Position numbers and translations under genes: made by a program
Shown: positions 20,083 to 44,746 of the stretch, one piece after another
Numbering within the stretch: the first letter of the stretch is position 1
Layout of the letters: each line of letters starts with the position of its first letter
Notes under the pieces: model-generated
What the model was told of the DNA's origin: nothing
What the model saw: the letters and a program-made list of their open reading frames with translations, nothing else
Databases searched by the model: none
Assembly (NCBI GenBank): GCA_963799845.1
Contig: CAWCYI010000007.1
Coordinates: forward strand, 1-64,000
Source: an uncultured Nitrososphaerota archaeon
GTDB taxonomy: Archaea; Thermoproteota; Nitrososphaeria; Nitrososphaerales; CADDZS01
Direction of reading: 5' to 3'
DNA length: 64,000 nucleotides

Positions 20083-20463
20083 ATCAGGATTCTTTCAAAA
20101 AACGGTACCTGACCAGAATCAGGACTGCGTCTGTAACAATTAGTGCAACGCCCGGATAAACGAGCGCTTTTGCCCTAAAGACCCGCTCGAAGAAAAATAA
20201 TTTTAGACGATTTAGAAGGGCAAGAGCGAGTTATCGATGTTTCGCTCCCCTACATCTGGGTCGGTAAATGGGGAGCTGTAGGAATTCGCAAAGAACTCGG
20301 AGATCAATTCTGGGTTCACTCGAAGAAACAGACTCGCAGAACTTCCGAAAGCGAGAAAATCGAAAGCGCGGTCGGAACAACTTTCTCCGGTAAAGACTGG
20401 GGGATTTGTTTCGTCCATGACGTAATGATGGGAAAAGAGAGATTCGAAGGTATCCTGGCATTT

Positions 20464-20518
20464 TTACTAGTAAATTCGCGCGGGGGTCCCACGTTCCGCA
20501 CTCGGGATTTACTAGTAA
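20464..20518 (+). repeat. 55-bp hairpin repeat copy B (best conserved)
   Basis: TTACTAGTAAATTCGCGCGGGGGTCCCACGTTCCGCACTCGGGATTTACTAGTAA. Confidence 0.9.
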
Positions 20519-22186: not shown

Positions 22187-22312
22187 CTACTAGTAAATAC
22201 GTGCGCGAATCCCGTTACTCAACCGAGTTATGATTTTGTGGATTTACAATAGGGGTTGCATTTTTACTAGTAAATTCGTGCGGGGGTCCCACATCTCGCA
22301 CTCGGGATTTGC
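22187..22312 (+). repeat. Hairpin repeat copies C (degenerate, 22187) and D (22264)
   Basis: CTACTAGTAAATACGTGCGCGAATCCC; TTACTAGTAAATTCGTGCGGGGGTCCCACATCTCGCACTCGGGATTT. Confidence 0.85.
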
Positions 22313-22486
22313 TTACCCTACTGTTCAAACTTTTTTATGAGTGCCAAGATATTGGGTTCTAGTCTACAACCCAAAAATAAACGAGACCTTGAATTGCCCT
22401 AGGAGAAACTATCTCTGTCAATCAGCACTGATTCATACGTAGAACCATTTGCGTTTAAGTTACGGTCTGGATAGTCCCTTCAGCTT

Positions 22487-23501: not shown

Positions 23502-23872
23502 CCTTCACATAGACAGCCTTCAGAAATTCAAATAGTCGCTTTGACTTTGAATCTCTGAATTCTTCCAAGCCGCGTCCTTCTGCAAATGGCATGCAAGGTA
23601 TAAAAAAAGTTAAGCAGAATTATCGCCAGAAAAGCCCCTTTCGATGTCGCTGTTTGAGAGCAGAGACCAAGGCGAGAACATTCTCGAAAAACCGAATCAG
23701 TATTTCCGAAAAGGCGGTTACATTTAGTTGAATTCCACAGGTTTTCGGTGCTGCAACTCGCAGTAGAATCGACTTTTCTATTGTGTTGATGAGCCGGGAT
23801 ACGAACTAAGAGGTACTAAGAGTTAGAATTGGATCAAGCGAGGTCCAAATCCCATCCACATTTAACAATTTT

Positions 23873-23919
23873 TTACTAGTAAATTCGTGCGGGGGTCCCT
23901 CATTCGACACTTGGGATTA
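23873..23919 (+). repeat. Hairpin repeat copy E
   Basis: TTACTAGTAAATTCGTGCGGGGGTCCCTCATTCGACACTTGGGATT. Confidence 0.85.
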
Positions 23920-24676: not shown

Positions 24677-24731
24677 TTTCATGTAAATTCTTTTTCAAAT
24701 CCCACATTCCGCACTCGGGATTTACTAGTAA
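24677..24731 (+). repeat. Hairpin repeat copy F (plus partial copy near 24799-24820)
   Basis: TTTCATGTAAATTCTTTTTCAAATCCCACATTCCGCACTCGGGATTTACTAGTAA. Confidence 0.85.
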
Positions 24732-24925
24732 AGACGTGTCCGAGTTCAGTTACTTACTTGAGTTCTAGATCTGCGGATTTGCAAAGGTAGTTGTATTTTT
24801 TACTCGTAAATTTGGGTCCTGATGACAAACGAGCTTTCGCCCAACCAGATTATCGTCATTGATAATCGTGTTTGGAATTTAAGTACGAGCCGTTTGTTAC
24901 ATCTTTTAGAGATTAAATAGAATTG

Positions 24926-25897: not shown

Positions 25898-26236
25898 TAA
25901 CAATTTCCAACTGCACTATTGTAAGGAAATCTACAAGCACTAGAATAGATGCAATTGAAGTAAGCGCAGTGAAAAGTAATAGATTTACGAGATCCGTGCT
26001 CACGCTTACAAATAACAATAACATCGAAATACAGAGCGCTGAGCAAAAATTTGAACGCTCAAAAAAAAGAGGGCGAACAAAAGCGCCTAACTATTCGAAC
26101 CGGAGCACTGGTCGCTACTAAATAAAGTTGCCTTTTCAAAATCTTTTTGGAATCCAAAATACAATGAAAATGCTTTGTGAAAAAATAGAAATGTGATTAA
26201 TGAAAGCGAATGCCCCAGATGTTCGGACGTCAAGTT

Positions 26237-26291
26237 TTACTGGTAAATTCGTGCGGGGGTCCCACATTCCACACTCGGAGTGTGTTACCAA
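26237..26291 (+). repeat. Hairpin repeat copy H
   Basis: TTACTGGTAAATTCGTGCGGGGGTCCCACATTCCACACTCGG. Confidence 0.85.
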
Positions 26292-26339
26292 ACACCTCTC
26301 TGACATAATCCTGTGCACTAATCTCAGAATTTTTTGTTT

Positions 26340-26410
26340 GGAGGTAACATGATGAACCTAACTAGGTGTGGATACCATCCCCTCATACGAACATACGTAG
26401 GTTCCTGTTT
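26340..26410 (+). other. att junction between modules 1 and 2
   Basis: GGAGGTAACATGATGAACCTAACTAGGTGTGGATA-CCATCCCCTC, followed by a degenerate left arm ACATACGTAGGTTCCTGTTT. Confidence 0.75.
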
Positions 26411-26442
26411 TTGTATGGTGTAGAAAAAATTCACCCGTCTCA

Positions 26443-27561
26443 TTATCGAACTCTAGGGACGTACTTAACTCTGAAGTATCTCAGGCATTCCCGATAGTGT
26501 TCTCTTTTAATTACCGTTCTTAACCGCTCGTATGTCACCTTTCTACAGATTCCATTCTCGGTGTTGTTTACGAGTATGAATTTTCGGTCTCCTCCGTCCT
26601 CCTCGTTCAAGTCCATAGCCGCATGACCAGTGGTACCCGAGCCAGCAAAGAAATCCAGCACTAACGCATCATTCCCCGCTGCTGCCCGTACAAGCTCCTT
26701 TACAAGTTTCATGGGTTTAGGAGTCTGAAAGATGTCTCTTCTCCCGAGAATTTCTTTGAGCTCGTCTTTGGCTGAAGATGTTGCCCCCAGCCCCTTCAAT
26801 ATCGTTTCCATCTGACTCCGAGTCTCGACGTACTCCTCACCGCTCAGATGTAAAGGCATCATCATGACGTTGAGGTTGGTCTTCTTCCTGTCCTTGAAAC
26901 ACACAAAGATGTTTTCGTGTACGATTTTGATGTCGTGGAATGGTCTTTCAACGCGATTCTGATCAAACCTGGGATCTATCTTGGGCCAAACCAAGACGAC
27001 GACGTTGGCTTCGCCAAAAATACTTTGACACAAAAGGAGGAGTGGACCAGTTTCATGCTCATCAACGTGAATGAACATCACACCATTTCGTGACAGGAGG
27101 CTATACGCAACGCGGAGCCTCTTGTCCATGAAACTGAGCCACTTGCTATGAACGTACGCATCGGCCGGGTCAACATAGTTGTAATCATCGTAATTCAAGG
27201 ATTCTAGACCTGTGTTGTACGGAGGGTCGACGTAGATCACGTTCACCTCTCCTGAGTATAACTTTGTCAGCCAACCGAGGACTGCGAGATTCTCCCCTTC
27301 TATCAATAGGTTAAACCTCTTGCCATGTTTGATTGCCAGTTTCCTTTGCTCGACCAGCTCGACGTCGCTCTCCTCCAAAATCCTCTCTATTTCTTCCGAA
27401 TGTCCTTCGAAGACGAGGCCGTACCTAGTTTCGACTAACTCCTTCTCCAACTCATCCATATAACGCAACAGAGACGGATCGCCCGACGTCTTCCTCACGA
27501 AATTTCTAACAGCGGATATGTGGCTTTGCAGTTCGCTCTTCCTCTTTTTTGAAAGGTTCAT
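26443..27561 (-). CDS. Type III Mod-like (beta-class) adenine DNA methyltransferase
   Basis: RYGLVFE, NLLIEGENL, IYVDPPYNTG, HSKWLSFM, TPKP, VLDFFAGSGTTGHA, RKFILV. Confidence 0.9.
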   Translation of the reverse strand: MNLSKKRKSELQSHISAVRNFVRKTSGDPSLLRYMDELEKELVETRYGLVFEGHSEEIERILEESDVELVEQRKLAIKHGKRFNLLIEGENLAVLGWLTKLYSGEVNVIYVDPPYNTGLESLNYDDYNYVDPADAYVHSKWLSFMDKRLRVAYSLLSRNGVMFIHVDEHETGPLLLLCQSIFGEANVVVLVWPKIDPRFDQNRVERPFHDIKIVHENIFVCFKDRKKTNLNVMMMPLHLSGEEYVETRSQMETILKGLGATSSAKDELKEILGRRDIFQTPKPMKLVKELVRAAAGNDALVLDFFAGSGTTGHAAMDLNEEDGGDRKFILVNNTENGICRKVTYERLRTVIKREHYRECLRYFRVKYVPRVR

Positions 27562-27797
27562 GTTGTCACTCTGCTCTCCTTCCCATTCATGGCGGCTCCT
27601 GTGCAACCCTTCAAGCTGAGCTCTTCGCACGGGCGAAGTTCACAAGGAGGGGACTTGGGTGATGACTTTGGGTGATGAGAACGGACGTTTATGTAAATCA
27701 GGGCTCGGGAGAGACCCAATGTTCGCATCGTTGAACCTCTCAATATGCTTTATCTGGTGATATCCATCAAGAGAAGAGAGCTGCAGATAGGCCGGAC

Positions 27798-28586
27798 ATG
27801 ACGTTCAAGATTGGAGTTTCAATATACAGCATACAAGACCGGTCAATTGAACTGCTCTTGGAATTCGTTGCGAGGAACCACTTCGAGTCGGTGGAACTCT
27901 GGTCGACTGATCTGACCCATGAGAATGACAAGACATTAAGGGCACTGTCTGCCGATGGTCGAACTATTTCTGTTCATGGGCCACTGTTGGATCTGGGAAA
28001 GGGAGAATCTCTTGAGGACAACATTGGGACATTATGCGAAACTGTCGATCTTGCAAACAAGTGCAATGCGCGCATCTTGGTATTACACACAGGGATCATA
28101 GACCGGACTAGCCCATCGGAGTTGGCAGAGGGGATCAAAGTGGCTGAAAGGGTATTGTCCGCGGTCAGCAATCATGCAAAGGAGAAGCACGTTTTCGTCT
28201 GTTTGGAAAATGAAGGCTATCATGAGAACGATCTTATCAAGGACTTCCAGCAGCTCCTCGACCTTGTCAAGACTTCGCCGTCGTCCTCTGTCGGTGTAGT
28301 ATTCGACCTCTCTCACGCTAATGTCTCTGGCGGGGTCCGGAACGGTCTAGAGATTCTTGGAGAGAATATCAGACATGTTCACATTGCAGACAATCTGGGA
28401 CAAGTGAAGGGTCACCACATGCCTCTTGGACAAGGAAATATCGACTTTGGTTTTTTGAAAGAACTGTCTGACCCTGGTGAACTAACTGCCATACTGGAGA
28501 TAGAGCCGAGCGTCGAGTGGGAGAAGAACCTACTTCACAGCAGAGAAATCCTGTGTGAAAAGTTGTTAGGATGTTCAAGCCCATGA
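27798..28586 (+). CDS. Sugar phosphate isomerase/epimerase (AP endonuclease 2 / xylose isomerase-like TIM barrel)
   Basis: SVHGP, LVLHTG, CLENEG, FDLSHA, HVHIADN, HMPLGQGNIDF, ILE. Confidence 0.85.
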   Translation: MTFKIGVSIYSIQDRSIELLLEFVARNHFESVELWSTDLTHENDKTLRALSADGRTISVHGPLLDLGKGESLEDNIGTLCETVDLANKCNARILVLHTGIIDRTSPSELAEGIKVAERVLSAVSNHAKEKHVFVCLENEGYHENDLIKDFQQLLDLVKTSPSSSVGVVFDLSHANVSGGVRNGLEILGENIRHVHIADNLGQVKGHHMPLGQGNIDFGFLKELSDPGELTAILEIEPSVEWEKNLLHSREILCEKLLGCSSP

Positions 28587-29256
28587 AACAAGCCGTAACC
28601 GATCCTCAAGAGTGATCCGGACGAGACCATTTCGTTCTCACGACATGGTGTAGAGACCTTGTGGAGAAAAAAATCCCTCATACGAGATTATCCCCCTTTT
28701 TATGATAACGTGACACTCACATTGCTATGTGAGAATGCACGTTCCCCGACAACAGTGTTCTTTGGCAAGCTCAGATCAATCAATTTTGTGCAACCGTAGA
28801 ACGCCCAATCATCCACATGAGCCACACTTCCGGGGATGTTAACTTTCGACAGGTTGGTGCAGTTAGCGAAGGCTCCTTTCGAAATGCTTTCCACTCCGCT
28901 CGAAACCGTCACGTACTTGAGGTTCTCGCAACCAAAGAAGGCGCTACGCCCTATTGTCCTTACTGTCTCTGGGACGACAAACTCCTCCGCAGGGTTACTC
29001 ATCGAATAGTACATTAGCTTGGTCCTATCCTTGTCATACAACACACCTTTCTCGTATAGGAAATTGGAACTATTGTTGGTCAGAGACAATGAGGGGCAGT
29101 TAGCAAAGGGGTTGTATCCGATGACCTTGACACTGCTCGGAATGGTCAGGTTTGACAGATTGATACAACCGTAGAACGAATGCCTTTGAATCGTCGTGAC
29201 CCCCGCCGGGATATCGAAGGACTTCGAGGGACTGTTTATCGCAAAATAAAAAATTG

Positions 29257-30755
29257 GTAAGCATTTAGTGTTTTGAAGCTCCTAGGCCGAAAGACATTTG
29301 GCCGAGTCTTGTTTTCATTTGTACCGCAAGACTCTTGCCGACCGTTGAGGAGGAGATTGATGTCGAGAATGACAAGCTCAGGAAGGAGCTTTCCAGACTC
29401 AAAGAGGAAAACAAAGAGCTGAAGGAAAAGTTATCCGGCTTCGAAGAGAAGTACAAACTCGTCGTCGAAGAAAACAAACAGCTGCATGAAGAGCTCTCCT
29501 CGCTCAAGACAACGGTATCAGCCGTTGTTGCAAGAGGAATAGGAGCAAAGGCAGACTCCTCCTCCAATCACAAGAAGACGAGACCACCAGGCAGGAAGAA
29601 CGGCCATGAGGGGAAGAGCAGAAGGAGGCCTCTGCACATTGACGCAAGAATCGAGCTTGACCAGACAACCTGTCCGAAGTGCGGCGGGCATCTCTCTGAA
29701 GATCCAACGGATGAATACACCAGGGTGGTCGAGGACATTGTTCCTGCGAGACTCGTTGCAACTGAGTACGTTATCAAGAGGCGGTACTGCAAGAGGTGTG
29801 GAGGGCAGGTCTCTCCCGCCATTCCAAACGTGATTGGTGGAGGAAGCAATGAAAGATTCGGTCTGCGTCTCATGCTCCTCGTAGTTTCACTGAAACTGCT
29901 CGGGTTGTCATACGCAAAGATTAGTTCACTCTTCAAGCTGCTCTTCAATCTGGAGATGACTGATGCGGCGATAGAACACTCCGTATCCAAGGTCGCAGAA
30001 GCTTTTGGTCCGGTGTACGATCAGCTCATTTCTGATATCAGAAGGGAGAAGAGTCTCAACGGAGATGAAACGAGCTGGAGGATCAAGGGAAAGAACCACT
30101 GGCTGTGGGCGTTCGTAGGAAAATGGTCTGTCGTCTACGAGATAGCAAATTCAAGGGGCAGGGATGTACCACTCGAGATTCTCGGGAGTGACTATCCTGG
30201 AACCGTGATAAGCGATTCGTGGCCGGCGTGGAACTACGTCGGTAAAAAGCACCAGAGGTGCCTGCAGCACTACCGAAGAGACGTGGATGACACTCTCACC
30301 TACAAGAGTCCCGGGATAGAATTTCTTGCATTTGCAAAGAAGCTCAAACGCATACTGAACGACGCGATAAAGGTGGGAAGGAGAGTAAATGTGAAGAGCG
30401 ATCGCCTAAATACAAAGAAGAGGCTCGAAAGGAGGATGGAGACACTCGTCGAAGCGTACTCATCCACTGGAGAAAAGAACTGCAAGAGGTTCTTGAAGCG
30501 CCTCAATCGAGAGAAGGATATGCTCTTCACCTTTCTCGAAGAAAAGGGAGTTGATTGGAACAACAACGCAGCTGAGAGAGCGGTAAGACCGAGTGTAGTG
30601 ATTAGAAAAATAACCTATGGCAACCAATCGACTAACGGAGCCGATGCCCACAAGGTGCTGATGAGTGTCAGAGAGACTTGCAATCTGAGAAAACTTAACT
30701 TCTATGATTACGCGCTCGACTACCTGAATTCAGCTTCAGAACGGTAACCTCTTAC
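29257..30755 (+). mobile_element. IS66-family element (single ORF, ISBst12-like)
   Basis: TIRs GTAAGCATTTAGTGTTTTGAAGCT / GTAAGAGGTTACCGTTCTGAAGCT (18/24); 8-bp TSD AAAAATTG at 29249-29256 and 30756-30763. Confidence 0.95.
29335..30747 (+). CDS. IS66-family transposase
   Basis: Coiled coil, GRKNGHEG, CPKCG/CKRCG zinc finger, GDETSW, ISDSW, QRCLQHYRR, NNAAERAVRP. Confidence 0.95.
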   Translation: MPTVEEEIDVENDKLRKELSRLKEENKELKEKLSGFEEKYKLVVEENKQLHEELSSLKTTVSAVVARGIGAKADSSSNHKKTRPPGRKNGHEGKSRRRPLHIDARIELDQTTCPKCGGHLSEDPTDEYTRVVEDIVPARLVATEYVIKRRYCKRCGGQVSPAIPNVIGGGSNERFGLRLMLLVVSLKLLGLSYAKISSLFKLLFNLEMTDAAIEHSVSKVAEAFGPVYDQLISDIRREKSLNGDETSWRIKGKNHWLWAFVGKWSVVYEIANSRGRDVPLEILGSDYPGTVISDSWPAWNYVGKKHQRCLQHYRRDVDDTLTYKSPGIEFLAFAKKLKRILNDAIKVGRRVNVKSDRLNTKKRLERRMETLVEAYSSTGEKNCKRFLKRLNREKDMLFTFLEEKGVDWNNNAAERAVRPSVVIRKITYGNQSTNGADAHKVLMSVRETCNLRKLNFYDYALDYLNSASER

Positions 30756-31972
30756 AAAAATTGAAGTCTTGCTCCTATCATATAGGGCGTCATTCTCTAA
30801 GACAAAGTTGGGACTGTGGTTCACAAGTTTGACGGAAGGGCAGTTCGAGAAAGGATTGTTCTCCACAATCTCTACACTTTCTGGGATGATGATGGTCCTG
30901 AGGGCCGAGCACCCATGAATGGAGTGCTTTCCGATGCTGACGATGCTTCCTGGAATATCTAAGATAGTGGCGTTGCTCTTCATCGAGTAATAGATTAGTG
31001 TAGTTTTCTCCTTATCATACAGCGCATCGTCTTCAAGGACGAAATTGGGACTCCTGTTCTCAAGATCCAATGATGGGCAGTTAGAGAATGGATTGTCCCC
31101 GATCTGGGAGACATTTTGCGGTATGGTCAGATTTGCGAGGTTAGTGCAGTCGCAGAAAGTGTCGCCGCCTAGGCTTGTAAGGCCCTCTGGGAGCGTAACG
31201 TTGACGATTTCGGAGTGGTCCCAGAAAACCCCATTTCGGAGCTTCCTTACACTGCTAGGGATGCGCACGCTCCTGCCTTTTCCGAGGTATCTGTTCAGCT
31301 CGTTGTTCTCTATCAGATATTCGAAAGTCCTTGTAGTATCCTCACTTTTCGGTTCCCCGCTCTTGTCCATTCTCGCCTCAGGACGAATATGGTAAGGCTC
31401 GATGTCATCCTCGAATAGCCCAGTCGTACTTGAAACGACTCCGCTTTCAAGACCGCGCCCCTGAATCAGGCGATTACCTGTTGTAAGCGGGAATATTGTG
31501 TATCCGCAATCGATTAATCCTGATCGTAGAGTGGAAGCGTACACGCATAGAATCTGGAATTGTTCATTTTGACCTGCGATTCTGACTGGGTGGCCGATGA
31601 GTGATCTAATTGCCCTAACCTCCTTTTCGTATTCGTCGTCATCCCATCGCCGGCACTTGATTCCAATTAGCCAGTTACCGAACTCATCCTTGATCGCAAT
31701 GTCACAACCATCACTGTATCCCACATGCAGATCCCAAGGACGAAAACCCTTCACCAAAAGCCTGTCGACACATTCAACGATGACGAAATTCCTTTGAGAG
31801 AACTCTCCCACTGCGCGATCACCCAGTTGTAGCTTGTCACCGTAATCGATGACTTCCTCAGCCAGATCGACCTTAATGATGTATGAGTCAAGATACCTTT
31901 TCGCATAGAAATTCCCAGAGACCTTACGGTATCCAAGCTTCCAGAAGTAGTTCCGATAATTCAGGATGTCGC

Positions 31973-32581
31973 TCATGTAGTCGAGGTCCGGCTCCGACTA
32001 TCAGATTTCAGGAGCGGACGCAAGGATTCGATCATGACCTTCACAACACCATCCACGCTGAGTTGTGTGGTATCTATCATTTTGTGTTTCATGTTGTACC
32101 TGATAAGGAAGTCTTCCATCTTATCCTTGGACTCTTTGTAACGAGTTGTCTTCGGAACGTCAGGGTCAACTGGGTCTCTTTTATGAAGCCTCTTCACCCC
32201 TGCCTCCTGAGTGGCCCATAAGAGAAATGTGTAGTCCGGTTTGCCGATCAAGCCGATCAAACATTGAAAAATGGGCTCGGTCTTTTTTCCGCCGCACCAG
32301 AAATAGTTTGATAGCAGATGTCTGTCAGTGATAATGTTCTCTCCCTCAAATTTGTGGTACAGATATATGTTACCTAGTCCGTAAAACCACGCTCTTAGGA
32401 CGTCGTCGTCCTCCTGTTTATTGATGTAGTCTCTGATCCGGATGTAATTAGTGAAACGCTTGTCGGAATCGAAGATGTAATGTAGGGGCTTCTCGACGAA
32501 TTTGAAGTGTAATTTATCGGCCAGTTTCTTCCCCGCAGTGGTTTTCCCAACGCCATCCATTCCCTCTATTGCGATGTGCAT
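31973..32581 (-). CDS. Thymidylate/deoxynucleotide monophosphate kinase family
   Basis: IAIEGMDGVGKTT P-loop, ITDRH, KPDYTFLL. Confidence 0.85.
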   Translation of the reverse strand: MHIAIEGMDGVGKTTAGKKLADKLHFKFVEKPLHYIFDSDKRFTNYIRIRDYINKQEDDDVLRAWFYGLGNIYLYHKFEGENIITDRHLLSNYFWCGGKKTEPIFQCLIGLIGKPDYTFLLWATQEAGVKRLHKRDPVDPDVPKTTRYKESKDKMEDFLIRYNMKHKMIDTTQLSVDGVVKVMIESLRPLLKSDSRSRTSTT

Positions 32582-32606
32582 GATATCTCTCCTACTAGTC
32601 AGGGAG

Positions 32607-34313
32607 TCAACTCGGATTCGGCCGCCTACGCGAGACTTCCGCTTTCTTACCTGCGGTAAAGAAATTAAGGTCTTCCAGGTAACCCGAAACTCTTCTCACC
32701 CGATAAATGTCATAGCTCCCGCATTTAGGGCAATCGTCAAATGTCCCAGTAATGTTACATTTCAAGCAGGTGTCCAATGGAAAATTTATCCCGAGATAGC
32801 TGACTCCATACCTTTCAGCTGCCTCAATGATCTCAGTAACTGCCTCGGTGTTTTTCAGCAAGGCGGACGCGAATTCCACATATGAGATGCACCCCCCATT
32901 GCAGAGCTCATGGAAGGGTCCTTCAAACCGTAGCTTCTCTATCGGATGTAAGCCCGAATCGACCCTGATGTGAAACGAATTCGTGTAGAATCCCTTTTTC
33001 GACACATCATTACCGTAGATCTCATAATCGATAGAAGGAAACCTTCCCGATACAAATTCGGCTGAAGTAGCCAATAGGGAGAAGTTCAAGTTGCAATCCC
33101 TCCGATACCCGTCAACCACATGCCTCATGTGCCTAACAATGTCTAGAGCAATCGCATTGTTCTCCTCGGAAACGTAGAACTCGTTTCCTGTTAGGAGTTT
33201 CACCGCCTCTGACAACCCTATGAATCCGATGGCAAGAGTCCCATTCCTAAAGATCTCTTCCAATGAACTCTCTGACGTGAAGAACTTTGTCCAGAGATTG
33301 AGACTGAGATTGTACGGGAAATCGTTGACATCCAGCTTTAGCAACTTATAGTATCTATCAAGAAGAAGATCCCTCACGATATTCGCGATCTTTTGCCATT
33401 CCTCCTTGAACGTGCAGACCTTTTCGGCTGCATCCTTCCCTTGGGAGGACCTGTCAATCTCGAGAGCGATTCTCGGTAGGTTGATAGTAGTAAAGGCGAT
33501 GTTGCCGCGGCCAATGCACGTGTCCTCTCCGAACAGGTTCTGAATAACTCTTGTCCGACAACCCATAATTGCCAGTTTGTGAGGGTCTACGTCTGCATTG
33601 GTCTTGGAGTCGCAGAGCAGGTAGGTAGGTATCATCTTCCTACAAGTAGATTCTACGGAAAGGCAGAACAGGTCGAAGTTTGGGTCATCGGATAAGGAGT
33701 TGACCCCTCTTTTTACCTTGAAGATAATGTTCGGCTTTATGCATTCCATGGACGAGTCCTTGAAATGGCTCAATACCGAAAAAGTCACGAATCTCGCAAC
33801 CTCCCCAGTTCCGAGGCCCAAGTTAAGCGAAACGTAGTAACTGGTCTGCCCGCCTCTTTCCCTCGTCCCATTTATCCAGTCTATGAACGATACTATGGAT
33901 TCACTCAGAATCTGAAGGTTCGATTTACTGTTTGAAAGGCCCAGCTGATAGAACAGGGTCTCTATTTCTGCATCGAAGTTCGCAAAACCCATTCCACCTG
34001 ACTGTTCAATCGCGAGTTTTCCAATAACATCTTTGTAGTGGTCAAAGATTCCGAATATTTTGCTTGGCTCTGACACCTCCTCGAGCCTTTGGAAAGGGAA
34101 TCCTTTCACTATGTTAAGCATGAGGCAATTGTAGGTTTGCCCGTAAGCTTCAAGATTGTGGATGTGTATTTTCCCTTCGTCATGCAACCTTGAGAACCTT
34201 GGATCCAAGCTATCCAGGATCTCTCGCTTCCTGAGCTTGATGCCTGTCTCAAATATTGTCCCCATGTAGGATTTGCGCTGAGACGCGTTGTCAAATTGTA
34301 ATCCTTCAGGCAT
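32607..34313 (-). CDS. nrdD: Anaerobic (class III) ribonucleoside-triphosphate reductase, no ATP cone
   Basis: HIHNL..YNC, EQSGG, MGCRT, RGNIAFTTINLPR, YTNSFH, CxxC/CPKCGS, RRVSGYL glycyl-radical loop. Confidence 0.93.
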   Translation of the reverse strand: MPEGLQFDNASQRKSYMGTIFETGIKLRKREILDSLDPRFSRLHDEGKIHIHNLEAYGQTYNCLMLNIVKGFPFQRLEEVSEPSKIFGIFDHYKDVIGKLAIEQSGGMGFANFDAEIETLFYQLGLSNSKSNLQILSESIVSFIDWINGTRERGGQTSYYVSLNLGLGTGEVARFVTFSVLSHFKDSSMECIKPNIIFKVKRGVNSLSDDPNFDLFCLSVESTCRKMIPTYLLCDSKTNADVDPHKLAIMGCRTRVIQNLFGEDTCIGRGNIAFTTINLPRIALEIDRSSQGKDAAEKVCTFKEEWQKIANIVRDLLLDRYYKLLKLDVNDFPYNLSLNLWTKFFTSESSLEEIFRNGTLAIGFIGLSEAVKLLTGNEFYVSEENNAIALDIVRHMRHVVDGYRRDCNLNFSLLATSAEFVSGRFPSIDYEIYGNDVSKKGFYTNSFHIRVDSGLHPIEKLRFEGPFHELCNGGCISYVEFASALLKNTEAVTEIIEAAERYGVSYLGINFPLDTCLKCNITGTFDDCPKCGSYDIYRVRRVSGYLEDLNFFTAGKKAEVSRRRPNPS

Positions 34314-34752
34314 GCGCTTCCCTCAAGTCAATGAACTTTTGGTTGGACGAGCCGACATATGGAATGGTGGTGGAGCGTCTTTCTTGAATGTATCTTCCCA
34401 CCTTTATGTACCTCAACTGCCTCAGTATTTCCTTTGGCACGTTCTCAATCTCGAAACCCGTGTAGAGGGCAATGTCAAAGTCTGAAAGACCTCGCGTTAG
34501 TTCGAGTACAGCTTGATATTGGAGTAGCGGTTCTCCACCCGATATTGTTAGTTTCTTATTGAGCGCCTTGGTACGCAGCTCTTTAATCAGGTCCCCTATG
34601 TCAACGACCTTCCCCTTCTGGATGTCCCACGTGGAACAATTATGGCACCCGCGACATCTTAACTCACAGCCCTGAACAAAGAGCACTGATCTTATTCCTG
34701 GACCATCCACTACTGAGCCATTGTAGTCGATTGAGTTAAGCATGATCTTCAT
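34306..34752 (-). CDS. nrdG: Anaerobic RNR activating protein (radical SAM)
   Basis: VDGPGIRSVLFVQGCELRCRGCHN, TISGGEPL, LYTGF, GSSNQ. Confidence 0.92.
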   Translation of the reverse strand: MKIMLNSIDYNGSVVDGPGIRSVLFVQGCELRCRGCHNCSTWDIQKGKVVDIGDLIKELRTKALNKKLTISGGEPLLQYQAVLELTRGLSDFDIALYTGFEIENVPKEILRQLRYIKVGRYIQERRSTTIPYVGSSNQKFIDLREAHA

Positions 34753-35383
34753 CAGGATTGTATCTCCCCTAAACCGCAACTATTGCCATATAGTCTCAGC
34801 CTAAATATTCTGCCGCATTGAGCAGAAATAAACAGGAGGGACGATTTTCAATCCTGATAATGGAATTGGTTGTGATCGAAGTTACTGGAGATCTCACTGC
34901 CTCACTTATAAATCGGATATGTTGACGGTCGTAACACCGCATCGCATGGAGGCGAGCCCGCTATCCGGCTTTTCCTGTTCTCTCAATCCATCAGCTGCTC
35001 GTTATGTCTGCCTGTTTTTCATAGTCCTTCTGCAGTCCGGGTGAAAGCATGACAAATCCCAGACCGACAGCGAGCGTGAACGCACTGACCACGATCCACG
35101 CGAGGCTGGGACGAAAGAAGAAGAAACTATTCGGAACAATAGTAATACTCTTCCATTAGGCTGAGGGACTTTGCAGGTTGGAGCTCCGTATCTTTGTTCG
35201 TCATTTCTTAGTGTGCCTCACAAACTAGCTAATATCCTAAACCCCAACCTTCCTAGCGATTGGAGACGACAGTAGATATCGGGTGACTCCAACCCAGGTT
35301 CTAAATTAGGGCTGCAATTTGAAAGGTATAGCTTCGAGAGTAAAAGGGGATTTACACTAATTGGTGCAATTCTCGGCCGGGTT

Positions 35384-35429
35384 GGAGGTAACAAAAAGAA
35401 CCCAATCAGGGCTGAATCCCATCCCATCC
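35384..35429 (+). other. att-like right end of module 2
   Basis: GGAGGTAACAAAAAGAACCCAATCAGGGCTGAATC-CCATCCCATCC; core starts 35 bp after GGAGG as in the other copies. Confidence 0.65.
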
Positions 35430-35738: not shown

Positions 35739-36854
35739 CTAGTGTTTCAAGTAATAATCAGCTACTACTCTGAACGACTCTTTCGGTTCCCAATTCATGT
35801 CGGGATAAGTTACACCATGCCTTCCTTTGGAATACGTCTTGACCAGACTCATGCTAGCCATGTCAAGATCATACCTTGGATTCTCATCATAGGGATGGAT
35901 CTGGGAAACGAAGACAGAGACAAAAGCACCATAAACACCCGCCTTGTCGAGGACACTCAGTTGGTCTACGAGTTCACGAGCCTGCAATCCTTCGTCTCTG
36001 ATGTGATTTCCATCTTTCAATTTGGGTCGAATGAACTTGCCGAACAAGGGCAACAGATAATGGAGAGCTTGGGACTTGTTGTCTATGATATTTCCCCCCA
36101 GACCAGCTCCATTGATTTCGGCTCCTTGGTAAGTTGGCATTCCAAACTCCGTAACTACAACTGGCTTTCCGATCTCAAATGCCGGCTTTAGCATCTCTGC
36201 GTATTGATCTTTGATCCTTTCAGCACGATAGTGGTCTACGCCGACATAATCGAAGAGATTCCAATCCACAGATTCCCACAAAAGAGAAGCGTAGGTTATT
36301 TTTCCATGAAAAACTTCTTTCACTGAAGCGACAGTTTTTTGGAGGTATGCGCGAAGTATTTTGTTGTGCTCGCCATTTCGGATACGTGAAATTGCTTCAA
36401 CAGAGTTCGTTTGCCCTGTAGAATTTTCCTGCTGCTTGTATTTTGTCATTAGTTTCGTCATTCTTTCCACTACGTTTTTGCCCTCAACTATGCCATTCAT
36501 GAAAAGCGTGAGTTCGCCTCCAACGACTAACACAAGGCTTTCTGGATATTCTCGCCGTAATTTTTCGGCTGATTCAGCGACCCTTTGGGTGTATGCCTGT
36601 GTTTGATCTTGTTTCTTATTCCACATCGTTGGACAAAGCCATACTTCAAGACCTTTCTTTAGAGCAATTTCAGTGGCAACAACGAGCCTTTTGATATCGA
36701 GACCAGTGATTCTTATCGCGTTGCAATGCAGATCATTTTTGATTATCTCGATTTCACGGCTTACAGTCTTGGGATCAAAGTCAGGTCGCCAGTTGAAATA
36801 CATCACGCTTCCTGCGTCGTAGTTGACTCCCTTTAGTTTCATCTTTCCCACCAT
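35739..36854 (-). CDS. Glycoside-hydrolase-like TIM-barrel protein (family often annotated 'abortive infection protein')
   Basis: KGVNYDAG, DLHCNAIRITG, VGGELTLF, GVDHYR, KPVVVTEFG, DLDMAS, WEPKESF. Confidence 0.7.
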   Translation of the reverse strand: MVGKMKLKGVNYDAGSVMYFNWRPDFDPKTVSREIEIIKNDLHCNAIRITGLDIKRLVVATEIALKKGLEVWLCPTMWNKKQDQTQAYTQRVAESAEKLRREYPESLVLVVGGELTLFMNGIVEGKNVVERMTKLMTKYKQQENSTGQTNSVEAISRIRNGEHNKILRAYLQKTVASVKEVFHGKITYASLLWESVDWNLFDYVGVDHYRAERIKDQYAEMLKPAFEIGKPVVVTEFGMPTYQGAEINGAGLGGNIIDNKSQALHYLLPLFGKFIRPKLKDGNHIRDEGLQARELVDQLSVLDKAGVYGAFVSVFVSQIHPYDENPRYDLDMASMSLVKTYSKGRHGVTYPDMNWEPKESFRVVADYYLKH

Positions 36855-36898
36855 TCTATCTTCTCCAAGGCTTCAACATCCGGAATATGATCTCCGAA

Positions 36899-37435
36899 TC
36901 AGGATAGCTCTCGCTTCAGCTTCCCTGGATCGGAGTACGCCATTCTTTTCCAGAGTCCTTCAATGCAAGCCATGACTGCTTCTAGCAATTGGTCTGGATT
37001 ATCCTTTGCAATCTCTCCAGTTTTCTGCCCCTCGACTATCAGCCGCCGCATTTCGTTTAGAAAGATCTTACTATGCCTTGTCATCCTTTCTTTAAGCTCA
37101 GCAGGTAGCGAATCATCAGCTAGTATCTGATAGAGAAATTGGTAGTATCCTGACTTCTCTCTTCTTCGTTCTATTAGTCTAGTTACAACAGTATGGAGTT
37201 TCTCTGCGGGAGTTCCAGGCAGTTTTTTCATTATCTTATCATATTCTTCTGCAGATTGTAGTGAGTGTTTCAGCAGGGTTTTGAAAATCTCATCCTTACT
37301 TTCGAAGTACCTGTAGGCAAGCCCTTGGCTGATTCCAGCTTCTAAAGCAATGTCCGCCATGGTAGCCGAACTACCTTTTCGCCCGAATACCTTCTCGGCG
37401 GATTTCAGAATATTCTGGGATTGATCTATTCCCAA
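36899..37435 (-). CDS. TetR-family regulator, N-terminus possibly truncated
   Basis: ILKSAEKVF...ATMADIALEAGISQGLAYRYFESKDEI. Confidence 0.85.
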   Translation of the reverse strand: MGIDQSQNILKSAEKVFGRKGSSATMADIALEAGISQGLAYRYFESKDEIFKTLLKHSLQSAEEYDKIMKKLPGTPAEKLHTVVTRLIERRREKSGYYQFLYQILADDSLPAELKERMTRHSKIFLNEMRRLIVEGQKTGEIAKDNPDQLLEAVMACIEGLWKRMAYSDPGKLKRELS

Positions 37436-37446
37436 TGCGTGCGCGC

Positions 37447-40125: not shown

Positions 40126-42597
40126 TTGAGCAGTATCACCCCTTCCGAGGGGAAGGATCTTCCTGTCGCAGAACTGCTCAAGAGACTTGCAACGACCGAA
40201 AAGGGGCTCTCTTCTTCAGAAGCAGCCAAAAGGCTCCAGCAATATGGAGCTAACGAGATAGTCGAGAAGAAGCGCTCCGCGATACTCGTTTTCCTACGAT
40301 ATTTTTGGGGATCCATTCCATGGATGATAGAAGCGGCAGCAATCATCTCCGCATTCTTGCAGAACTGGGATGACCTAGTTATCATCACCGCGCTCCTGGT
40401 GGTAAATGTCATTGTCAGGACGTGGCAGGAGAACAAAGCGAGCAATGCAATCGAGCTGCTGAAACAGAGGCTTGCCCTTAGAGCGAAAGCACTGCGGGAC
40501 GGAAAGTGGGTTGATCTTCCTGCAAAAGAGCTCGTTCCCGGAGATATAGTGCGTCTACGCCTCGGGAACATTGTTCCAACAGACACAAAACTCGTCGACG
40601 GTACGTATCTTCAGATCGACGAATCGGCGCTAACTGGGGAATCTCTGCCTGTGGAGAAGCATCCGGGCGATGTTGCTTTCTCATCCTCTATTGTTCGACA
40701 GGGCGAGATGAACGCCCTTGTGGTTACGACGGGGATGAACACCTACTTCGGACGGACCACGAAGCTGGTTGAGGAAGCTCAGACCAAAAGCCATTTCCAA
40801 GGAGCAGTGGTGAAGATCGGTGACTATCTTATCGCGCTTGCCGCAGTCATGGTAACGATCACTTCAATCGTCGGTCTCATCCGTCAGCAGGGACCTCTCG
40901 AAATCCTTCAGTTCGGACTCGTTCTGATCGTTGCAGCAATCCCGGCGGCGATGCCGGCCGTCCTCTCCGTTTGCATGACGGTGGGAGCATCAGCATTAGC
41001 GAAGAAAGATGCCATAGTCAGCAGGCTGGTTGCCATAGACGAGATGGCGGGCGTGGATATTCTATGCGCAGACAAGACAGGAACAATCACGAAGAACGAG
41101 CTTACTGTAAGCGAAATGAAGACCTTCAAAAAATATACGGAAAACGATATCCTGCTTTTTGCAACCCTTGCCTCAAGGGAGGAAGACAACGATCCTATCG
41201 ACGACACGATCATAATGAAAGCCAAGACATTGGACGAGATGCCCGACTCGATCGCAAGTTACAAAGTAGCTTCTTTCAAGCCGTTCGATCCCGTATCAAA
41301 GCGAACCGAAGTCACGGTGGAAGCCAAAGACGGCAATGTCTTTCAGATTACCAAGGGAGCACCCCAAGTGGTTTTGTCTCTCGTCCATGACAAAGACATC
41401 GAGGGAGTCGTGAACGAGGATGTCAACAGCTTCGCCGAGAAGGGATATCGTGCCCTAGGTGTGGCAAGAACCGATGGAGTGAAAAACTGGCAATTTGTCG
41501 GGCTCATAGCGCTCTCCGATCCTCCACGAGAAGATTCAGCCGCGACGATCAAGACTGCACAGTCAATGGGAATAGATGTCAAGATGGTCACAGGCGATCA
41601 CATGGCCATAGCCAAGGAAGTCTCACAGCAAGTGGGGCTGGGTACAAATATTGTCACATCGTCCTCTATCCTCGACAAATCAGATACTGAAGCAGAATCG
41701 GTGGTGGAGAAAGCCGATGGTTTCGCGGAGGTTTTTCCAGAGCACAAGTATCGCATCGTCGACCTCCTGCAGAAGAAAGGTCACATCGTCTGCATGACCG
41801 GAGACGGCGTCAACGATGCCCCCGCCCTAAAGAAGGCTGATTGCGGGATAGCAGTGGCCGGAGCTACCGACGCCGCAAAATCTGCCGCTGCCGTAGTCTT
41901 GACGAAGCCCGGTCTCTCTGTGATCATCGATGCCGTGACCGGGAGCCGGGAGATATTCCAGCGCATGACTAACTATGCAATCTATCGCATCAACGAAACA
42001 TTCCGTGTTCTTTTCTTCATATCACTTTCAATCATCGTGTTCAAGCTCTATCCAGTCACTGCGTTGATGATTGTTCTACTTGCTCTCCTTAACGACATGC
42101 CTATCATGACGATAGCCTATGACAATGTCAAGATCTCCCAAAAACCAGAGAAGTGGAACATGCGTACGCTACTGGGAATTTCATCATTTCTGGGAATTAT
42201 CGGGACAGCATCGTCCTTCGGAATGCTCATTATCGGACTAGAAGTTTTGCACTTGAATCCGCTGGTTCTCCAGTCGTTCATATATCTGAAGTTGTCCGTG
42301 GCGGGGCACCTTGCGTTGTTCGTGGCTCGGACAAAAGGACCATTCTGGTCCGTAAGACCAGCGAAGCCGTTGCTACTTGCTGTCATATTGACGCAGCTGA
42401 CCGCGACACTAATCACAGTTTATGGCATCCTTTTGCCCGCCATGGGGTGGGAGCTAGCGGCAATCGTCTGGGGATACGCATTGGCATTCTTTTTTGTTCA
42501 AGACTTTCTCAAGGTTCGATTCTACAAGCTACTTAATCGCGAGGGCGGAGTCTTTCAAATGAAGAAAATTGAATTGCAATCGAGTCCTCTCGCCTAA
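40126..42597 (+). CDS. Plasma-membrane proton-efflux P-type ATPase (P3A)
   Basis: WGSIPWMIEAAA, LTGES, IPAAMPAVLS, DKTGT, FDPVSKRT, KGAPQ, DPPRED, TGDGVNDAPALK. Confidence 0.93.
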   Translation: MSSITPSEGKDLPVAELLKRLATTEKGLSSSEAAKRLQQYGANEIVEKKRSAILVFLRYFWGSIPWMIEAAAIISAFLQNWDDLVIITALLVVNVIVRTWQENKASNAIELLKQRLALRAKALRDGKWVDLPAKELVPGDIVRLRLGNIVPTDTKLVDGTYLQIDESALTGESLPVEKHPGDVAFSSSIVRQGEMNALVVTTGMNTYFGRTTKLVEEAQTKSHFQGAVVKIGDYLIALAAVMVTITSIVGLIRQQGPLEILQFGLVLIVAAIPAAMPAVLSVCMTVGASALAKKDAIVSRLVAIDEMAGVDILCADKTGTITKNELTVSEMKTFKKYTENDILLFATLASREEDNDPIDDTIIMKAKTLDEMPDSIASYKVASFKPFDPVSKRTEVTVEAKDGNVFQITKGAPQVVLSLVHDKDIEGVVNEDVNSFAEKGYRALGVARTDGVKNWQFVGLIALSDPPREDSAATIKTAQSMGIDVKMVTGDHMAIAKEVSQQVGLGTNIVTSSSILDKSDTEAESVVEKADGFAEVFPEHKYRIVDLLQKKGHIVCMTGDGVNDAPALKKADCGIAVAGATDAAKSAAAVVLTKPGLSVIIDAVTGSREIFQRMTNYAIYRINETFRVLFFISLSIIVFKLYPVTALMIVLLALLNDMPIMTIAYDNVKISQKPEKWNMRTLLGISSFLGIIGTASSFGMLIIGLEVLHLNPLVLQSFIYLKLSVAGHLALFVARTKGPFWSVRPAKPLLLAVILTQLTATLITVYGILLPAMGWELAAIVWGYALAFFFVQDFLKVRFYKLLNREGGVFQMKKIELQSSPLA

Positions 42598-42880
42598 TTG
42601 GCGAGTGACGTCGCAGCTCTAGGCGATCTGCGATTCCACGATCATATCAAGAAGATGGGGTTCACGGGAATATAAGAAAGGATATTCGAATTGGATGATC
42701 CTTAGTCGTCAAAAGAAATTCCTCAAAAAGAAATGAAAGCCTGTTTCAACTGTGACTAACGACTAGAAAGGCAAAGGGTCAGCACGTGTAAGTGGTGGGT
42801 TCACAAGAAGTTCCAGGTTATTTTCATCTCACTATCTCAACTTTTTTCTCTTCTCTGATAATCAGATTAAAGGGCTGCTT

Positions 42881-44160
42881 CTAGCCTCCTTCAGTGACTT
42901 GCTGGTTTCCCAGTCTCCGTTCGATATAACGCAACAATAATGGGGTTTGAAGAACGATAGACAAGAAGGCAACTCCCAAAACCATGCTCGTAATCACGTG
43001 AATGTCGGAGTCGGTTAGTACTGCGGATGCGGTCAAAGATGCCGCCAATGCAATTGAGAGCGCACCTCGTACTCCGCCCAGCATGGCAACATTGCTCCAA
43101 CTAATGGGAATCCTTTCTTCAATCTGGTTAAAGATTGCAAGTATTGGGTAAACTGAAGCTGCTCTTGCCACCGTCACTGCAAGATAGGCTGTGATTATCA
43201 AAAAAATGGATTGTGTGAACGTGACGAGGTTTGTCTCGAATCCTATCAGAAGGAACGCAACAGAGTTCCCAATGAAGGCTGCGATTTCCCAGAAGGTCAA
43301 GATTGCTTCTCTTGTCTCGGGAGCTATCGTCGCCTTCATCGTGACGTTTCCAAAATAAAGCCCGACGACTGCAACCGCGATCAGTCCAGAGGCTCCTATT
43401 CCAGAAGCTAAAATGTATGATCCGTAGACGGCTGTTATTGTCAGAATCACTTCAGTAATTTTGTCTTCTGTGACGGAACTGATGCTCTTCGCTCCATACG
43501 CAATCGCCAGACCAATTATCGTACCCCCTCCGATGCTGAAGCCGAAACTCAGAAAGTCGGAAAAAACCGGCACGTTTGTAAGGGTAATAGAGGATAGGAC
43601 GATTGTAAAAATTACAATTGCAGTGGCATCGTTAAAAGCAGCTTCTGTATCCATTAGGGCAGAAAGTCTTGGAGCAACGCTTGTACGGCGGAAGATTTCG
43701 AGGACGGTTACCGCATCAGTTGGGGCAATAATCGCCCCGAACAGCAGGGAAACGGAAAGCGACAAGCCTGATATTTGCCATAGAACCAATCCTCCAACTA
43801 GAGTCGCTATGACGACCCCTACAGTAGCGAGAACAAACGAAGGTCTGATCACCGCTCGCAAGTCGGGGGTGCGAATGTGAGTCATCGCTTCAAAGATCAG
43901 CGGAGGGACGACGATCCCGACGAAGAGTCCACCCTGTACAAGGCCGGTGTAAAAGATCTTATTTGCAAGATAGTCGTTAGCAGTGGGTCTGTGATTACGT
44001 TTGAACCTAGGAATGTAATTCCGGAGAAAGCGGTTATTCCAACTCCGATGAAGACCAGGATTACAGTGTATGGTAGTTTGGCTTTGACGGACAGAAGCTG
44101 CGAGGCGAGCATGACCACCAAGAATACGATGAGAATAATCTCAATGCTCGCAACGGCCAT
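42881..44160 (-). CDS. CPA1 (NhaP-like) Na+/H+ antiporter, frameshift near 43900
   Basis: LPYTVILV, GAIIAPTDAV, EAAFNDATA, GGVRGALSIALA. Confidence 0.88.
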
Positions 44161-44326
44161 GAATTTTTCAAATTGCCCTATACTACAATTAAGTTATCGA
44201 GTTATCTGGATCCGAAGAATAAATCCATCATTAACTGGGCCTCAAAACGTACCACTGTTCGTGGGATTGTGATGTGTCAGAGAATATCGATGTCATATTT
44301 GAAGATCAGACAGCGACGGAAATACT

Positions 44327-44720
44327 GTGGCTAGTGTGGGCTCGGATTCCGTAGGAAACTATTCAGCAACATTCCTAATTCGGCTGACGACAGCAGGGAA
44401 GCATAAAGTTGCCGCGACTGATGGAGTTAACAGCGCTACGGGAGTATACACTCTTGTTCCCAATCTAAGTCTGTCTCTAAAAAGCGCTAAAACCGGTAAG
44501 ATAGTTACAGAGACAGTCTCGGGAACTGGATACGCCGAAAAAATTCATTGGTCACAGTCTACATCAATGGAAGTCCCGTTGCAACGGCAACCACTGACGG
44601 CAATGGAGGCTTCACCTTTTCATTCACTGTTCCAATAGAAGTCGCTGGAAGCTACCCAGTGCAAGCAACTGACGCGAGTGGCAATACTAATTCCATTTCG
44701 CCCAGCTTTACATACAACTA
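44327..44720 (+). pseudogene. Fragment of an Ig-like repeat surface protein
   Basis: TTAGKHKVAATDG and a repeated ATATTDGNG...VQATD in another frame. Confidence 0.4.
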
Positions 44721-44746
44721 GAGAAAGACTCCCTAATCTCTGCAAT

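Follow-up and report, generated by a model that had tools for sequence, protein, structure and literature searches.

Why should an anaerobic ribonucleotide reductase (RNR) share an operon with a leucine-rich repeat (LRR) protein and travel with genes derived from restriction-modification (R-M) systems? The question is raised by a locus in an uncultured Nitrososphaerota archaeon, found in the first 64 kb of contig C7 (here called the window) of a 4.6-Mb genome in nine contigs (G000). The partial small-subunit rRNA of this genome agrees better with the archaeal model (three pieces of 459, 173 and 42 bits) than with the bacterial one (a single piece of 535 bits). On the minus strand, at ~26.3-35.4 kb, four tightly packed genes follow one another in the order nrdG, nrdD, kinase and LRR_5 gene, accompanied by a Mod-like methyltransferase gene and a triosephosphate isomerase (TIM)-barrel gene (Table 1). 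An earlier sequence-only reading of the window had described these four genes as one operon, and we find the layout as it had described it: nrdG and nrdD overlap by 8 nt, a 25-nt gap (32582-32606) separates nrdD from the kinase gene, and the kinase stop overlaps the start of the LRR gene by 4 nt (31973-31976). It had further proposed that the genes might be an antiviral or DNA-modification system that senses through the LRR protein and alters nucleotide pools, with a plain anaerobic deoxynucleotide-supply operon as the alternative. Here we show that the genes form a real, ancient and mobile unit with an accessory RNR of its own lineage, and weigh what such a cassette might do.

The core of the cassette was conserved at every genome locus with enough sequence to see it. 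A search of species-representative genomes with the window NrdD returned eight loci, one of them on a 2.8-kb contig that ends inside nrdD. At all seven loci with enough flanking sequence (six archaeal metagenome-assembled genomes (MAGs) and one bacterial), nrdG, nrdD, the kinase gene and the LRR gene, whose first 218 codons specify a distinct domain (the N-domain), were kept in the same order; the hosts are MAGs of Nitrososphaerales, Bathyarchaeia, Methanosarcinaceae, Methanomassiliicoccales (two), Methanocorpusculum and the bacterial family Acholeplasmataceae. The methylase gene was present at five of the seven, and the other two (L013 and L014) carry a variant with a glycosyltransferase (GT). 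The TIM-barrel gene, which the sequence-only reading had counted as part of the module, is not a constant member of it: it occurs in three of eight instances (the window, L008 and L010, among the window and the seven genome loci) and in none of 80 metagenome loci, and is a variable accessory gene.

Those 80 metagenome loci were retrieved with an alignment of the eight NrdDs as the query, and linkage was counted over loci with enough downstream sequence. Among the 48 loci whose NrdD is at least 43% identical to that of the window, the kinase was present in 44/44, the N-domain in 36/37 and Mod in 22/25, with a GT in a further 2/25; among the 32 loci below 43%, the corresponding counts were 1/27, 0/22 and 0/18. 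Since the 43% line was chosen after this two-mode pattern had been seen, the NrdD tree serves as an independent check. In the tree (80 rows, with NrdD matches shorter than 1400 nt dropped), the 49 linked rows and one row of unknown linkage state form a single clade (support 99), which a fully supported branch separates from all 23 unlinked rows of the main comparison. The linkage label changes twice on this tree, against a mean of 20.4 changes in shuffled labels, and none of 500 shuffles gave so low a number. Archaea of four phyla, a Mycoplasmatota bacterium and a phage are intermixed within the clade. Because the same set of genes turns up as a unit in distantly related archaea, in a bacterium and in gut phages, we regard it as a real and apparently undescribed mobile module. 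The combination is apparently new to the literature searched, each part coming from a known family, and full-text searches returned no description of an RNR-kinase-LRR-methylase combination; the operon of Methanosarcina mazei treated in PMC9694453 is the canonical nrdH-nrdD-nrdG operon and not the present cassette.

The reductase itself looks like a normal RNR. The window NrdD passes the family profile (TIGR02487, 331.5 bits against a cut-off of 326.35), aligns to residues 29-563 of phage T4 NrdD (E 4.2e-44), to Prevotella copri NrdD (E 8.3e-63) and to a third solved NrdD, and keeps the thiyl-radical cysteine (GCRT), the glycyl-radical motif (RVSGYL) and the zinc ribbon (CxxC...CxxC); GCR[TS], the glycyl motif and the zinc ribbon are found in 49 of the 50 NrdDs of the clade. 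With its motifs intact, it is a candidate for reductase activity on ribonucleoside triphosphates. The adjacent nrdG product, 75-78% identical to its homologues at L008 and L009, falls below the cut-off of its profile (TIGR02491, 101.2 bits against 126.1), yet this profile is its best match. That NrdD keeps its catalytic motifs and lacks the ATP cone was correctly seen in the sequence-only reading (no match to a cone was found), but the lack is not special to this copy: none of the 120 best database relatives, ~565 aa long, has a cone, so its absence is a trait of the clade, and it is normal in phage T4 NrdD too. The window NrdD resembles the T4 type of class III RNR in family, glycyl-radical motif, thiyl cysteine, zinc ribbon, adjacent activase and absence of the cone. 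It departs from that type in forming its own clade, in always being followed by the kinase and the N-domain/LRR gene, in the order nrdG then nrdD, and in the constant presence of a further RNR in the hosts checked.

That last difference identifies the enzyme as accessory. Each of the eight host genomes checked encodes one or more further RNRs, represented by a longer canonical NrdD (open frames of 666-793 aa) or by the large subunit of a class I/II enzyme, and in none of them is the cassette NrdD the sole RNR. Its distribution is also sporadic. No NrdD of the clade was found in 40 relatives of the window genome, one of which has a weak match at 27% identity, nor, with a threshold of E 1e-100, in samples of 400 more genomes from the same phylum and 300 from the phylum of another host; the unpublished genome G001 is counted among the 40 relatives and among the 12 family genomes used in the empty-site search described below. 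The sequence-only reading had named two outcomes that would tell against it, a gene combination not conserved elsewhere and a housekeeping NrdD serving as the host's only RNR. The combination is instead conserved, and the linked NrdDs form their own clade. Since the combination recurs widely and its NrdD is never the host's only RNR, a plain housekeeping cassette for deoxynucleoside triphosphate (dNTP) supply is very unlikely.

Two other RNR-like loci of the window genome are recorded here for completeness. On contig C4 (95834-98821; L002, L003), a 712-aa open frame that strongly matches the large subunit of class I/II RNRs is immediately preceded by a 669-aa open frame whose NRDD-family match is weak (59 bits), and the same pairing recurs in genome G041. 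A second class I/II large-subunit match on C4 (1044609-1046008; L004, L005) is divided between two open frames, of 377 and 339 aa, that overlap; a frameshift, a gene split in two or a fault of assembly could account for this.

The second half of the cassette derives from R-M enzymes. The N-domain matched no Pfam family, and its profile gave nothing useful against PDB sequences (one match, E 0.39), but it matched the PADLOC profile of type IIG restriction-methyltransferases at E 2.7e-13. A profile search of 1.84 billion proteins returned 495 relatives at E 0.001 or better; 67 of the 150 relatives listed are at least 950 aa long, and the three long ones that were scanned (~1130-1290 aa) carry N6_Mtase, Eco57I and two Methylase_S domains. 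The AlphaFold2 model of the N-domain (predicted local distance difference test score (pLDDT) 89.4) had a single significant PDB match, the type IIB enzyme BsaXI (E 1.8e-5 to 1.2e-4, probability 1.0; next match 0.076), and an ESM Atlas search returned the same HSDR_N_2-type domain. By profile and by fold, the N-domain is thus homologous to the N-terminal nuclease domain of type IIB/IIG enzymes, among them BsaXI and the proteins of ~1250 aa that combine a nuclease domain, N6_Mtase/Eco57I and two Methylase_S domains. Its catalytic E-x-K, however, is gone. When 47 cassette proteins were aligned with the 67 long type IIG-like homologues (numbering of the window protein), the helix glutamate E68 was kept on both sides (Glu in 65 and Asp in 2 of the 67; Glu in 46/47 cassette proteins), and D92 was Asp in 67/67 homologues against Asp in 39 and Glu in 2 of the 47. 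The (E/D)-C-K motif was lost: its acid, Glu in 65 and Asp in 2 of the 67, is present as Asp in only 1/47 cassette proteins, and its lysine, found in 67/67 homologues, in 0/47. Because this lysine is retained in none of the 47 and the acid in only one, the N-domain is a relic of a type IIB/IIG restriction nuclease for which canonical DNA cleavage is not expected. The sequence-only reading had called the gene a nuclease, but with the catalytic E-x-K lost in 47/47 module proteins it does not qualify as a nuclease effector.

The methylase, by comparison, is well kept: DPPY and FAGSG occur in 40/40 Mods. Its best sequence and fold matches, with DPPY and FxGxG, are type III Mods (Mbo45V and EcoP15I) and small beta-class adenine methylases (MboIIA, M.BceJIV and CcrM), and the fold of the methylase domain matches the DNA adenine methylases Mbo45V Mod, M.BceJIV, CcrM and MboIIA. 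The stretch between query residues 228 and 274 (~46 residues) stands where Mbo45V has residues 232-378 (~146), so that a central target-recognition domain is missing. This does not in itself rule out a DNA substrate, because the fold matches small sequence-specific beta-class DNA adenine methylases, and DNA is the putative target. The cassette differs from type III R-M systems in this short central stretch, in the partnering or fusion of Mod with the pseudo-nuclease/LRR protein, and in having no Res: no ResIII or helicase family was found among the module open reading frames (ORFs) of the window or inside the cassette at the scanned loci. At many gut loci, a single protein of 809-830 aa comprises the N-domain, the LRR_5 repeats and the N6_N4_Mtase domain (one was modelled with pLDDT 87.4 and a predicted template modelling score of 0.66), and because of these fusions we treat the LRR protein and Mod as one functional unit. 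The fused proteins repeat the type IIG layout of nuclease domain, middle module and methylase. They are unlike type IIB/IIG enzymes in that E-x-K is lost, LRR_5 repeats replace target-recognition domains, and the methylase is a beta-class N6_N4_Mtase and not a gamma-class N6_Mtase; lacking both a catalytic PD-(D/E)xK and a gamma-class methylase with target-recognition domains or an S subunit, the cassette proteins do not belong to type IIB/IIG. On the evidence of these motifs, we consider it settled that the R-M-derived half has lost restriction and kept methylation.

The LRR repeats that join the two parts are of the BspA type (LRR_5). In pairwise comparisons the LRR region is about as conserved as Mod and NrdG, and the N-domain is usually the most divergent part; between L043 and L054, the N-domain is 52% identical and the other five cassette proteins are 85-91% identical, a pattern that points to replacement, or to fast divergence, of the dead nuclease domain alone. 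The LRR gene that the sequence-only reading had cast as a sensor is real, but the sensor role itself is less secure: since the LRR region varies no more than the enzymes do and, at many loci, forms one protein with an active methylase, a part in targeting or as a scaffold would fit at least as well.

The kinase is a divergent member of the thymidylate-kinase (Tmk) family. It passes the Pfam thymidylate-kinase profile (cut-off 27 bits; Table 1) and falls below TIGR00041 (48.7 bits against a cut-off of 83.25), Escherichia coli Tmk matches it at E 0.0033, and the P-loop is kept in 47/47 kinase homologues. In the reading that we favour below, it would act on deoxynucleoside monophosphates (dNMPs) or diphosphates (dNDPs).

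The loci without Mod show which parts of the cassette vary. In L013 and L014, Mod is replaced by a GT1-Sel1-LRR_5 protein (which in L014 also has a metallophosphoesterase domain), an AAA_14-LRR_5 protein and a HAD phosphatase that is free-standing or fused to NrdG. Over all stretches without Mod (L013:12615-17596, L014:11887-17149, L029:6575-9543 and L044:10932-14831), the variants comprise GT1-Sel1-LRR_5 proteins with or without Metallophos, Sel1-LRR_5 proteins and AAA_14-LRR_5 proteins, with up to three different LRR_5 proteins after the kinase. Nucleotide hydrolases occur inside the operon at several loci: HAD in L013, L014, L044, L046 and L056, Metallophos_2 in L013 and L039, and NUDIX in L029. 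In the gut and phage subclade, nrdG is directly preceded by a conserved ORF of ~135-150 aa (L039:6141-6566, with homologues in 28 loci) that matches neither Pfam nor PHROG families; it is not in the window.

Carriage by viruses was seen directly. A complete 57-kb genome of a tailed phage from human faeces (PV036423.1, L108; Ca. Heliusvirales) holds the whole cassette at 44520-50086, in the order 135-aa ORF, nrdG, nrdD, kinase, N-domain/LRR gene and mod, between two adjacent serine-recombinase genes (41677-44527) and a third (55106-56905). On two IMG/VR contigs, the cassette follows directly after tandem serine recombinases (L110, 5750-8556; L111, 1-2675), and these viral instances resemble a cargo segment mobilised by recombinases. 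Fourteen gut metagenome loci each have one or more of the unknown genes that precede the cassette in PV036423.1; searches of the unknown phage genes beside the cassette with PHROGs and Pfam gave sub-threshold matches to Abi_2 and PBECR5 and nothing else. When viral contigs were scanned with the alignment of LRR proteins, none of the 62 pattern matches proved to be a relative.

Enzyme substrates, DNA as the target of the methylase, the role of the LRR protein and any benefit to the host are inferences. We tentatively favour, as the reading that seems to us possible without being probable, a mobile accessory cassette of genomic islands and temperate phages that would join a self-contained anaerobic DNA-precursor supply to an R-M-derived DNA-marking enzyme in the service of the carrier DNA. 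NrdG would set the glycyl radical on the cone-less NrdD. Free of the dATP off-switch that cone-bearing RNRs possess, NrdD would convert NTPs to dNTPs, and the Tmk-family kinase, joined in many variants by a HAD, NUDIX or metallophosphoesterase nucleotide hydrolase, would carry out dNMP and dNDP steps in this pool. Together with the LRR_5 repeats, the dead type IIB/IIG nuclease domain would act as one functional unit with the beta-class adenine methylase, which would mark DNA, and in the variants without Mod a GT1-Sel1-LRR_5 glycosyltransferase would take its place. The purpose would be replication and protection of the carrier DNA and not cleavage of foreign DNA. Phage T4 has a nucleotide-metabolism and DNA-modification gene set that includes NrdD, NrdG, a dNMP kinase, Dam and glucosyltransferases. 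The cassette brings the same kinds of enzyme together, and at least one complete tailed-phage genome carries it, but it differs from the T4 set in being a compact single operon, in having no dNMP hydroxymethylase among the ORFs scanned, in the added LRR/pseudo-nuclease protein and in lying mostly outside recognised viruses.

Several observations weigh against this preferred reading. The cassette is rare in viruses: one of 2889 phage records with an NrdD match reaches 43% identity, two of the best 80 NrdD loci in IMG/VR (250 relatives found) fall in the clade, and 151 plasmid records with an NrdD match have a best identity of 32%, none being in the clade. In the three viral cases, the cassette stands beside integrase-type recombinases, the usual place of cargo, and not in the replication module, and several chromosomal copies, including that of the window, have intact catalytic motifs and no viral genes nearby. 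The chromosomal neighbours are variable and often of a defence-like or mobile-element type (UvrD-PDDEXK, DUF6946, NERD, PDDEXK_1, EcoRII-C, MoxR-VWA, AAA_21 ATPase and RHS), the defence-like ones (EcoRII-C, UvrD-PDDEXK, NERD, AAA_21 ATPase and MoxR-VWA) being those that count here. Methylation is not universal, given the GT variants without Mod, and the N-domain and LRR parts are near-neutral or acidic (isoelectric point 4.5-8.8), a weak point against DNA binding by these parts. Finally, we found no mechanistic reason for an RNR and a kinase to travel with an LRR protein, and the strict linkage suggests a coupling tighter than that of two independent functions.

A serious rival, though one that we consider rather unlikely, is antiviral defence along the lines proposed in the sequence-only reading: the LRR protein, with its degenerate nuclease domain, would sense infection, the cone-less NrdD/NrdG and the kinase would alter nucleotide pools, for example by unchecked NTP-to-dNTP conversion or by pool imbalance, and the methylase would mark self DNA or have some other role. 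The sporadic, horizontally transferred distribution of an accessory gene, its cargo position beside recombinases in phages and the same defence-like neighbours are all in keeping with such a system, as is the N-domain's standing as the fastest-evolving part. The variants without Mod add AAA_14-LRR_5 proteins, one of which matches the PADLOC candidate PDC-S01 (E 4.6e-7), and their ATPase-plus-LRR layout is one that we take to resemble that of nucleotide-binding leucine-rich-repeat (NLR) proteins. The kinase, too, resembles PDC-M51B (5.8e-11) and VakA (1.8e-8), both weak profile matches, so that the cassette shares with viperin-plus-kinase and other nucleotide-targeting defences a radical-SAM-dependent nucleotide enzyme beside a P-loop nucleotide kinase; it differs from them in that the radical enzyme is a bona fide NrdD/NrdG pair and not viperin. 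PADLOC-DB v2 matched no described system, the component matches being MTase_III, the N-terminus of REase_MTase_IIG, PDC-M51B, VakA and a weak pVip, with none for NrdD, and the literature searched held no experiment or report of such a defence. Nor is a toxic effector evident, the nuclease having lost its catalytic residues throughout, NrdD looks like a normal RNR, and the LRR region is not hypervariable and at many loci is fused to an active methylase.

Two further interpretations seem improbable to us. One is a modified-dNTP pathway on the logic of T4 hydroxymethyl-deoxycytidine, operating in cells and temperate phages, in which NrdD would make a dNTP, a NUDIX, HAD or metallophosphoesterase enzyme would turn it back into the dNMP, the methylase would modify the free nucleotide, for example to N6-methyl-dAMP, with the dead nuclease/LRR protein as scaffold, and the kinase would re-phosphorylate it for incorporation. 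Such a pathway would use every core enzyme and explain both the private kinase and the feedback-free RNR, and the recurring hydrolases inside the operon and the lack in Mod of the central domain of type III Mods agree with it. It sits badly with a methylase of a DNA-methylase family, whose beta-class structural matches of similar size are sequence-specific DNA methylases and whose fusion partner itself descends from a DNA enzyme; the window and L008-L012 moreover have none of the hydrolases, and no thymidylate-synthase-like base-modifying enzyme, such as a dNMP hydroxymethylase, was found in the subset of cassette ORFs scanned with Pfam. The other, to which we give an equally small chance, is a protein-directed complex in which LRR_5 and Sel1 repeats would bind a host, viral or RNR protein and the methylase or glycosyltransferase would modify or regulate it, either replacing the ATP cone or taking over host functions. 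LRR and Sel1 repeats are generally protein-binding modules, the GT1-Sel1-LRR_5 proteins have a repeat-plus-GT-B layout, and N-domain and LRR are not basic, but the methylase has the fold of DNA adenine methylases, with DPPY retained, and no partner is directly evidenced. An ordinary anaerobic dNTP-supply operon that happens to neighbour unrelated R-M and LRR genes is, to our minds, effectively excluded. NrdD, NrdG and the kinase do belong to anabolic families and have intact motifs, but the co-occurrence counts contradict such a reading, with linkage across domains of life (44/44 and 36/37 against 1/27 and 0/22), the linked NrdDs are one clade, start and stop codons overlap, and another RNR is present in every host checked.

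The features of the locus are collected in Table 1.

Table 1. Coordinates of the cassette and associated features in the window.
Feature	Position	Strand	Description
47-nt repeat, copy a	26338-26384	+	left island edge
Mod-like beta-class methyltransferase	26443-27630	-	PF01555; PADLOC MTase_III E 1.5e-75
Xylose-isomerase-like TIM-barrel gene (MJ1311-like)	27798-28586	+	PF01261
Pseudo-nuclease/LRR gene, 3' part	28700-29256	-	LRR_5 repeats and stop
IS66-family insertion sequence	29257-30755	+	single transposase ORF 29335-30747
Pseudo-nuclease/LRR gene, 5' part	30756-31976 (ORF 30720-31976)	-	N-domain (residues 1-218), then first LRR_5 repeats
Kinase	31973-32581	-	divergent thymidylate-kinase-family P-loop kinase, 202 aa; PF02223 54.6 bits
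nrdD	32607-34313	-	class III (anaerobic) RNR, 568 aa, without ATP cone; PF13597 E 2.6e-105
nrdG	34306-34779	-	radical S-adenosylmethionine (SAM) activase; Fer4_12/Radical_SAM, Fer4_12 E 1.6e-26; phrog_626 E 1.8e-30
47-nt repeat, copy b	35382-35428	+	right island edge

In the allele assembled here, the LRR gene is interrupted by an insertion sequence (IS) of the IS66 family, flanked by an 8-bp target duplication, AAAAATTG, at 29249-29256 and 30756-30763. The family assignment follows from the transposase (NF033517, 259 bits against a cut-off of 180), the 8-bp duplication and the presence of several copies: two more, 99.7-99.9% identical, lie on contig C6, with target duplications at all three. 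Because the IS is shared with contig C6, it ties the island to the G000 genome. By coordinate arithmetic, the two pieces of the LRR gene are in frame and together make 589 codons, the proteins of the closest relatives having 590 and 592 aa, and the 3' piece is 65-66% identical to the C-terminal LRR region of L008 and L009. One contig from a soil metagenome (run X1) joins 29248 to 30756 without the IS (1507 nt skipped, with 8 letters that fit both sides); as it extends only 30 letters past the joint, it is weak evidence that the insertion may be polymorphic in the population, the interrupted gene coexisting with an intact allele.

In GC content the island resembles the remainder of the genome. 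Both of its edges bear a 47-nt imperfect direct repeat, the copies being 77% identical, with a core of GGAGGTAACA, four variable bases, GAACC, a variable hairpin-like stretch and GAT.CCATCCC.TC. The sequence-only reading was right that repeats bound the module, but its view of them as attachment (att) sites found no support, and we rejected it. A third copy, on the same strand as the other two, lies 16.5 kb away at 51916-51962 (no other was found in the 4.6-Mb genome at up to 12 mismatches), the window has no match to a tyrosine or serine recombinase, the motif is missing from cassette borders at other loci, and no syntenic empty site was found in the 12 family genomes compared. Around the orthologues of a flanking 371-aa gene in G006, G007 and G011, the sole further flank gene in common is a TetR gene in G011. 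We treat the motif as a local repeat and not as att. No Rfam family and no tRNA was found in the window, and a scan of it for bacterial promoters and terminators gave chance-level numbers (11 against 11.7 expected, and 9 against 8.6 expected), which mean little because the scan is bacterial and the organism an archaeon.

Some features of the flanks are noted separately. On the right, 35761-37436 is a segmental duplicate of C4:1961285-1962960 (97%) and 38122-39000 of C4:1964976-1965854 (92%); this flank contains the 371-aa gene, which is GH113-like and multi-copy (seven matches in its own genome), the TetR gene and part of a CLC channel gene. An intergenic repeat of ~45-55 nt, found at 26235-26278, 22261-22313, 23870-23918, 20458-20513 and 24700-24734, has dozens of copies at 80-100% identity on C4 and C6, and one copy lies just outside the left island edge.

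These results describe a unit that has stayed whole through transfers among four or more archaeal phyla, a bacterium and gut phages. In RNR biology, the cassette marks out an NrdD lineage that is accessory and mobile and has obligate partners, and in R-M and defence biology, it offers a type IIB/IIG nuclease domain repurposed after the loss of catalysis, with LRR_5 repeats where target-recognition domains normally stand. If the modified-nucleotide route were true, it would be the first adenine-methyl counterpart of the T4 hydroxymethyl-deoxycytidine pathway. Whichever reading holds, the cassette is a compact five-gene set that can be tested in anaerobes and gut phages.

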